DNA of 64,000 nucleotides from assembly GCF_000027125.1 (NCBI RefSeq), contig NC_017626.1. One strand, written 5' to 3'. How positions within the stretch are numbered: position 1 is the first letter of the stretch; the number at the start of each line of letters is the position of its first letter. Of the stretch, positions 26,459-26,866 are shown piece by piece. The stretch comes from Escherichia coli 042 (GTDB lineage: Bacteria > Pseudomonadota > Gammaproteobacteria > Enterobacterales > Enterobacteriaceae). The translations under genes were made by a program, and so were the position numbers. The notes below the pieces were generated by a model. It was not told the origin of the DNA, did no database searches, and saw only the letters and a program-made list of their open reading frames with translations.

Positions 26459-26866
26459 ATGAATATGATTGAAGTTGTTGCCGCCATCATCGAACGTGAT
26501 GGCAAAATTTTACTCGCGCAACGCCCCGCCCATAGCGATCAGGCGGGATTATGGGAGTTTGCTGGTGGTAAAGTCGAGCCGGATGAAAGCCAGCGGCAGG
26601 CGCTGGTGCGTGAGTTACGCGAAGAATTGGGCATCGAAGCAACTGTGGGTGAGTATGTTGCCAGCCATCAGCGAGAAGTGTCGGGGCGGATTATCCATCT
26701 TCATGCCTGGCACGTACCCGACTTCCACGGGACGTTACAGGCACATGAACATCAGGCGCTGGTCTGGTGCTCACCTGAAGAGGCGCTGCAATATCCTCTG
26801 GCCCCTGCTGACATTCCATTATTAGAGGCGTTTATGGCTTTACGCGCCGCCAGACCAGCGGATTAG
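26459..26866 (+). CDS. nudG: Nudix hydrolase (CTP pyrophosphohydrolase)
   Basis: 135 aa ORF with Nudix box (GGKVEPDESQRQALVRELREELGIE). Confidence 0.9.
   Translation: MNMIEVVAAIIERDGKILLAQRPAHSDQAGLWEFAGGKVEPDESQRQALVRELREELGIEATVGEYVASHQREVSGRIIHLHAWHVPDFHGTLQAHEHQALVWCSPEEALQYPLAPADIPLLEAFMALRAARPAD

Follow-up and report, generated by a model that had tools for sequence, protein, structure and literature searches.

Why do nudG and ynjH, two convergent genes of Escherichia coli, run into each other so far that each stop codon lies within the coding sequence of the other, and is this arrangement a regulatory device or the result of two protein ends that both have to be kept? We addressed this question in a window of 64,000 nt from E. 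coli 042 (contig NC_017626.1), i.e. the whole stretch of DNA that was analysed; all positions given below are positions of this window unless stated otherwise.

Geometry of the overlap

The nudG gene (26459-26866, plus strand) encodes a 5-hydroxy-CTP/CTP pyrophosphohydrolase of the Nudix/MutT family with a length of 135 aa, as given by both the open reading frame list and RefSeq. On the minus strand, the open reading frame list places ynjH at 26832-27104, a gene with a GTG start codon that encodes a 90-aa DUF1496 protein. The nudG stop codon, TAG, is located at 26864-26866 (plus strand) and decides whether the overlap measures 35 or 41 bp, while direct reading of the sequence places the ynjH stop codon, TAA, at 26834-26832 (minus strand). 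The resulting dual-coding segment covers 26832-26866 on both strands and contains both stop codons. Its sequence is TTATGGCTTTACGCGCCGCCAGACCAGCGGATTAG, and based on the codon tables it encodes NudG residues 125 (in part) to 135 plus stop and YnjH residues 81 to 90 plus stop.

The original prediction of a 35-bp overlap between the coding 3' ends of the two genes is thus in agreement with the open reading frame list, direct reading and RefSeq. RefSeq coordinates of both genes are identical in strain Ecol_316, which is 100% identical in this region, and the equivalent K-12 MG1655 genes are annotated at 1841490-1841897 (nudG, plus strand) and 1841863-1842135 (ynjH, minus strand). An alternative start or stop assignment had been named as a way to remove the overlap. 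This can be ruled out, as both stop codons are fixed by reading frames with Pfam NUDIX and DUF1496 matches, and alternative start codons cannot abolish an overlap that sits at the 3' ends of both genes.

Within the shared segment, first codon positions of the two genes lie opposite each other, whereas the third position of nudG faces the second position of ynjH and the second position of nudG faces the third position of ynjH. As a result of this phase, a silent change in one gene is always a replacement in the other, with the exception of some first-position changes in leucine and arginine codons.

Evidence for two functional genes

A trivial explanation would be an annotation artefact in which one of the two frames is not a gene or ends earlier, so that no true coding overlap exists. 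We found no support for this possibility beyond the fact that ynjH is small, starts with GTG and has no known function. In contrast, both frames gave strong Pfam matches. Residues 4-125 of NudG match the NUDIX family (E 7e-23), and the full-length protein matches PDB entry 2RRK, 'CTP pyrophosphohydrolase' (E 5e-86), a solved structure of the 135-aa protein. Residues 33-89 of the 90-residue YnjH cover the entire DUF1496 profile (53 of 53 positions, E 2e-24). YnjH has 409 homologues in our search, with hundreds of proteins of 86-94 aa across the Enterobacteriaceae, and its N-terminus resembles a signal peptide as judged by eye. In an alignment of 14 divergent orthologues, residues P82, L83, W85, R86, R87 and V88 are invariant.

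Published data likewise argue against an artefact. Both the mRNA and the protein level of ynjH drop at 42 °C (PMC6551532), and the "overlapping genes nudG and ynjH" were shown in Figure 1 of the 2018 GWIPS-viz paper as an example of strand-specific ribosome profiling (PMC5753223), with ribosome profiling displayed for both genes. Taken together with the coding-type substitution pattern and the FliA regulation of ynjH described below, and with stop codons that permit no other assignment, these observations make an artefact hardly credible.

Conservation across genomes

The region of ca. 1.1 kb around the overlap, identical in Ecol_316, was found in 5414 out of 5426 complete E. coli genomes. A 60-nt probe spanning the junction was found in 5407 of the 5426 genomes (exact in 3016, with 1-2 mismatches in nearly all others), and both nudG and ynjH are annotated under the probe in 11 of the 12 matches listed.

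We then scanned one genome per species with a YnjH alignment, which yielded 80 loci from more than 20 genera, including Escherichia, Salmonella, Citrobacter, Enterobacter, Lelliottia, Kluyvera, Buttiauxella, Kosakonia, Atlantibacter, Siccibacter, Yokenella, Trabulsiella and Phytobacter. The set of 78 two-gene loci used for comparison includes two E. coli reference regions taken from annotated genomes. Convergent overlap was observed in 76 of these 78 enterobacterial loci, with lengths of 41 bp (58 loci), 35 bp (17 loci) and 26 bp (one locus); owing to the phylogenetic relatedness of the compared sequences, these locus numbers are not independent observations. In 74 loci, exactly 373 nt separate the start of nudG from the stop of ynjH, and therefore no indel has occurred there. 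An antisense frame that stays open for 11 codons is on its own not improbable by chance, and what takes the overlap beyond chance is its indel-free conservation in 76 of 78 loci and more than 20 genera. The pair shares 3' nucleotides, consists of two genuine genes and is retained in orthologous loci, and can thus be classified as a convergent overlapping protein-coding pair.

Two loci deviated from this pattern. In Citrobacter koseri NCTC10786, a 6-nt gap lies between the genes and NudG is 121 aa long. We rejected this locus as a true exception because the reading frames of gdhA, ynjF and ynjE are also broken on the same contig, which points to assembly indel errors. In a Pluralibacter metagenome-assembled genome (MAG), a 1.9-kb insertion carrying a gene for a 326-aa protein separates nudG from ynjH. 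Here, YnjH retains its usual end (...NPLVWRRVRQ*) while NudG terminates prematurely with another tail (...LLDAFITAKR*), and ynjH is followed by a clear hairpin terminator (AAGCAGAAATGCCC...GGGCATTTCTGCTT).

In four further loci ynjH adjoins gdhA and no intact nudG is found downstream; in one of them xthA is the downstream neighbour of ynjH, with a REP-like spacer between the two. In Trabulsiella guamensis (locus L012, 2591-3484), all that is left of nudG is an N-terminal remnant (MLKTIDVVAAII...), fused out of frame, ynjH is intact, and a 190-aa open reading frame on the opposite strand fills the space between ynjH and ynjF.

Sequence constraint in the shared segment

To characterize the shared segment further, column entropies were calculated by codon position for 75 sequences. 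The body of nudG showed values of 0.51, 0.35 and 1.35 for positions 1, 2 and 3. Inside the overlap, values were 0.20, 0.69 and 0.25 in the nudG frame and 0.24, 0.25 and 0.69 in the ynjH frame. The ynjH frame thus shows the normal coding pattern inside the overlap, and variation in this segment follows ynjH. Synonymous variability of ynjH, after normalisation, was 0.52 inside and 0.66 outside the overlap, a trend towards extra constraint on ynjH synonymous sites only (one-sided Mann-Whitney p = 0.11, n = 10 versus 32), so that some additional constraint from nudG or RNA may exist.

This is in line with what is seen at the NudG protein level. Invariant NudG columns stop at F125, whose codon straddles the ynjH stop, and nearly every later position is variable. 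Structures of other MutT-family members can be aligned with NudG only as far as residues ca. 117-127. The AlphaFold model of NudG, based on 20 orthologues and with a mean pLDDT of 93, contains a helix at residues 118-131 with a pLDDT of ca. 95, followed by residues 131-135 with a mean of 67. The overlap thus encodes the end of the last Nudix helix and then a floppy NudG tail.

One site points to constraint in the reverse direction. At 26840-26842 (both strands), nudG codon 128 (TTA, Leu) lies opposite the ynjH codon for Val88 (GTA). Either GTT or GTC at Val88 would give TAA or TGA in nudG and truncate NudG at residue 127, whereas GTA and GTG keep nudG open past residue 128. Val88 is encoded by GTA in 65 and by GTG in 10 of the 75 sequences, with GTT or GTC in none. 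For other conserved valine codons, GTT and GTC together make up 37% in ynjH and 57% in nudG, and GTA accounts for only ca. 10%. The codon bias at Val88 is the one clear sign of nudG constraining ynjH.

The length of the overlap depends on ynjH codons as well. Base 26865, the third position of ynjH Thr80, is A in 17, G in 12, C in 40 and T in 6 of the 75 sequences. All four bases leave threonine in YnjH, but in nudG they give TAG (stop), TGG (Trp), TCG (Ser) and TTG (Leu), respectively. Where this codon is open, the next in-frame nudG stop lies at 26870-26872 (plus strand), which is TAA here and TGA in most genera, and gives the 41-bp overlap and a NudG of 137 aa. NudG ends at the equivalent of this site in 58 of the 78 loci, with tails such as ...PADSC* or ...PADWC*, and this 41-bp form is in the majority and is probably ancestral. 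The nearest relatives of E. coli have TGG (...DWC*) in place of its TAG, a difference without effect on YnjH by which NudG goes from 137 to 135 aa and the overlap shrinks from 41 to 35 bp. The short 35-bp state of E. coli recurs in scattered genera, and the single 26-bp overlap arose via a V84I replacement in YnjH. Given the YnjH protein sequence, stops in the nudG frame should be possible only at codons 128, 136 and 138, i.e. opposite K89/V88 (TxA), N81/T80 (TxG) and S79/L78 (TxA), and this confinement would account for the discrete overlap lengths.

Transcription and 3' ends

The original prediction further held that the two transcripts must be mutually antisense. This stands insofar as any mRNA that runs through either stop codon is complementary to the partner mRNA over at least 35 nt, although 'must' presupposes that one and the same cell transcribes both nudG and ynjH, and expression of ynjH requires sigma-28 (FliA) (PMC4183435). 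A consensus scan of 26200-27500 found no terminator-like sites on either strand. With no terminator and an overlap within coding sequence, both mRNAs must run on into the partner gene as untranslated antisense RNA. RNA folding at the junction was no better than that of shuffled sequences on either strand (z-scores +0.35 and +0.05), and a search of both strands of 26200-27400 against the families of Rfam 15 gave no match at E <= 1. The supplementary files examined of one E. coli Term-seq study list no mapped 3' ends for nudG or ynjH.

Rho is known to suppress antisense transcription that is not accompanied by translation. Past the nudG stop, the RNA is richer in C than in G, with a ratio of 1.2-1.6, and ca. 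140-240 nt past the ynjH stop the ratio is about 2. Based on the general behaviour of Rho, a model of polymerase collision at convergent genes (bioRxiv 10.1101/2022.10.23.513370) and this modest C-over-G bias, we infer that the 3' ends are probably set by Rho, RNA polymerase collision and exonuclease trimming.

We also considered a cryptic bidirectional terminator or pause hairpin within the overlap that would position polymerase collisions and define both 3' ends. The only inverted repeat at the junction, with the arms CCAGCGG (26855-26861) and CCGCTGG (26886-26892), is able to form a stem on both strands, its inner five pairs are kept in 70-75 of the 75 sequences, and a nascent stem-loop is reportedly required for positioned collisions at convergent pairs (bioRxiv 10.1101/2022.10.23.513370). 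However, the repeat arms encode the invariant YnjH residues Q72-R73 and P82-L83-V84, so that coding accounts for their conservation. The stem would enclose a loop of 24 nt with no U or A tract after it, and the site was absent from the terminator scan. All seven pairs are intact in only 10 of the 75 sequences, compensatory changes occur in only two cases without covariation support, and fold z-scores for the window (+0.35 and +0.05) and across species (+0.14 and -1.26) gave no stable fold. We therefore regard such an element as highly improbable. SEnd-seq work on bidirectional intrinsic terminators described convergent 3'-overlapping transcripts which, as in case of nudG and ynjH, allow head-on polymerase encounters, but the GC-rich hairpin with flanking A and U tracts that characterizes those terminators is absent here, while it is present after ynjH in the Pluralibacter MAG.

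FliA-dependent expression and the excludon hypothesis

A search for the FliA motif (TAAAGTTT-N11-GCCGATAA) upstream of ynjH found TAAAGTTA, a 12-nt spacer (N12) and ACCGTTAT at 27166-27139 on the minus strand. The corresponding sigma-28 promoter spans 27132-27166 (minus strand), with the -35 element at 27166-27159, the -10 element at 27146-27139 and the transcription start at 27132, followed by a Shine-Dalgarno sequence (AAGGAG) at 27116-27111 (minus strand). This matches the RegulonDB promoter ynjHp, which is quoted in PMC4183435 (supplementary file 5), and the ynjH-strand motif is kept in Salmonella, Citrobacter, Enterobacter, Kosakonia and others. In RNA-seq, ynjH expression was 29 in wild type compared with 2 in a fliA deletion, with an accompanying ChIP peak (PMC4183435), and FliA dependence is conserved for the Salmonella gene STM1300 (bioRxiv 10.1101/2020.09.09.289983). 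Deletion of ynjH resulted in no motility phenotype (PMC4183435).

Table 2 of the same study gives the FliA motif for ynjH as TAACGTTATTGTCTCTGCTACTGATAAC, which in the window lies on the plus strand at 27116-27143 and points towards gdhA, while the conserved motif and RegulonDB ynjHp are on the ynjH (minus) strand. The -10 elements of both strands overlap via the near-palindrome GATAAC/GTTATC. Base 27138, A in E. coli 042 and G in K-12, weakens the plus-strand match only. The ynjH::thyA deletion of that study (supplementary file 7; primer JW4931, 26838-26861) keeps the overlap up to 26861 and replaces the last nudG codon and stop, so that the mutant alters the NudG C-terminus as well.

Based on the evidence above, we consider it likely that nudG and ynjH are two functional genes with a true and ancient tail-to-tail overlap, which persists since neither protein can dispense with its C-terminus. 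The last ten codons of ynjH encode the most conserved part of DUF1496 and dictate the sequence of the shared segment. NudG residues ca. 126-131 complete the C-terminal Nudix helix and are protected only insofar as Val88 avoids the two stop-making codons, while the last 4-6 NudG residues form an unconstrained read-on tail whose length depends on the synonymous codons of ynjH at Thr80 and Leu/Ile78. Once ynjH is activated by FliA, its RNA could form a duplex with the 3' end of nudG RNA; any effect of this on NudG levels is probably minor and a by-product, not a switch shaped by selection. The natural separation in the Pluralibacter MAG, where the YnjH tail is unchanged and the NudG tail changed, counts in favour of this explanation.

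Conservation of the overlap is also expected under selected regulatory coupling, and the main rival explanation is a functional convergent excludon in which FliA-driven transcription of ynjH at the time of class-3 flagellar gene expression was selected to lower NudG, either by transcriptional interference or by RNase III cleavage of the duplex. The pair is part of the RNA-seq-defined E. coli excludome, being one of 165 convergent excludons detected in no fewer than 50% of the 58 MG1655 transcriptomes surveyed (ExcludonFinder, NAR 2025, PMC12288877). Conditional expression of ynjH from a sigma-28 promoter conserved across genera, along with an overlap conserved in more than 20 genera, would fit this hypothesis, as would a second FliA-dependent gene in the window, ves, which overlaps convergent cho by 41 bp and is also a listed excludon. 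However, the underlying coverage criterion flags any two expressed genes with overlapping coding sequences. The listing thus follows automatically from expression of the two genes and says nothing about function. We found no reciprocal expression data for nudG and ynjH, and the main text and supplementary files examined of the FliA regulon study do not mention nudG (PMC4183435). Conservation is fully explained by the need for both C-termini and the rarity of a separating duplication. Moreover, at least four lineages have ynjH and no adjacent intact nudG, an insertion separates nudG in Pluralibacter, and loss of ynjH leaves motility unaffected. A functional excludon is thus unlikely. In its most specific form, where sigma-28 turns on ynjH late in flagellar assembly, the ensuing obligatory antisense transcription across the nudG 3' end lowers NudG, an enzyme that sanitises the nucleotide pool, and the overlap is a selected regulatory device, it appears more doubtful still, at the level of a long shot. 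If true, this coupling would have been kept throughout the history of the Enterobacteriaceae, possibly alongside cho-ves as another case of a FliA-dependent gene lying over a DNA-repair gene.

Comparison with other convergent genes

The nudG-ynjH overlap is an ordinary case. Like other convergent (3'-3') overlapping bacterial genes, the pair has tens of shared bases, one dominant frame and a weakly constrained extension of the partner. Nothing categorical sets it apart from such genes in general. Particular to this pair are an overlap older than the split between more than 20 enterobacterial genera and a length that switches between 26, 35 and 41 bp via substitutions in the dominant gene, which are ynjH-synonymous for 35 versus 41 bp and V84I for 26 bp. 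Among convergent excludons, it is a listed pair with one partner under a sigma-28 promoter (PMC12288877). In a typical excludon it is the untranslated regions that overlap, and the genes in E. coli are on average 95 nt apart (PMC12288877), whereas nudG and ynjH overlap in coding sequence. Their transcript overlap is unavoidable, unlike in excludons regulated by terminator read-through.

Within the 64-kb window, coding overlap was found in three of nine convergent pairs, namely cho-ves (41 bp), nudG-ynjH (35 bp) and yeaL-nimR (44 bp), so that such overlaps are locally not uncommon. The cho gene (8484-9371, plus strand) overlaps ves (9331-9906, minus strand) at 9331-9371, and yeaL (62163-62609, plus strand) overlaps nimR (62566-63387, minus strand) at 62566-62609; both pairs are excludon-listed (PMC12288877). 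Since ves has been reported to be FliA-dependent (PMC4183435), two sigma-28-dependent genes in 64 kb each overlap the 3' end of a gene for DNA or nucleotide maintenance, which may be a coincidence. The stops of ynjE and ynjF (25743-25752) are 8 bp apart and those of yeaK and yoaI (61888-61889) 0 bp apart, and both pairs are again excludon-listed (PMC12288877).

Genes alternate between strands from ynjE to gdhA (+ - + - +). Beyond gdhA, the interval up to topB (28739-32379, minus strand) holds genes for a 647-aa and a 566-aa protein with coding sequences that overlap by 4 bp. The 647-aa protein carries Sel1 repeats and weakly matches the DnaJ domain (E 1e-5), with a score of 25.8 bits that stays under the Pfam cutoff of 27.8 bits, and the 566-aa protein belongs to the Hsp70 family. 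PADLOC gave only very weak matches for this interval, and K-12 has ynjI (DUF1266) at the same position.

Conclusions

In conclusion, the nudG-ynjH overlap, already annotated and published, is an ordinary, ynjH-governed overlap with a small reciprocal constraint from nudG. It opens no new question and has little significance beyond housekeeping. What our analysis adds is a worked example in which the conserved C-terminus of one gene dictates the shared sequence and the tail length of its partner drifts with the synonymous codons of the dominant gene, while the partner exerts constraint in return only at the site where its last helix would be truncated by a stop. It also calls for caution in the design of ynjH or nudG deletions and recoded variants, as changing the end of one gene alters that of the other.
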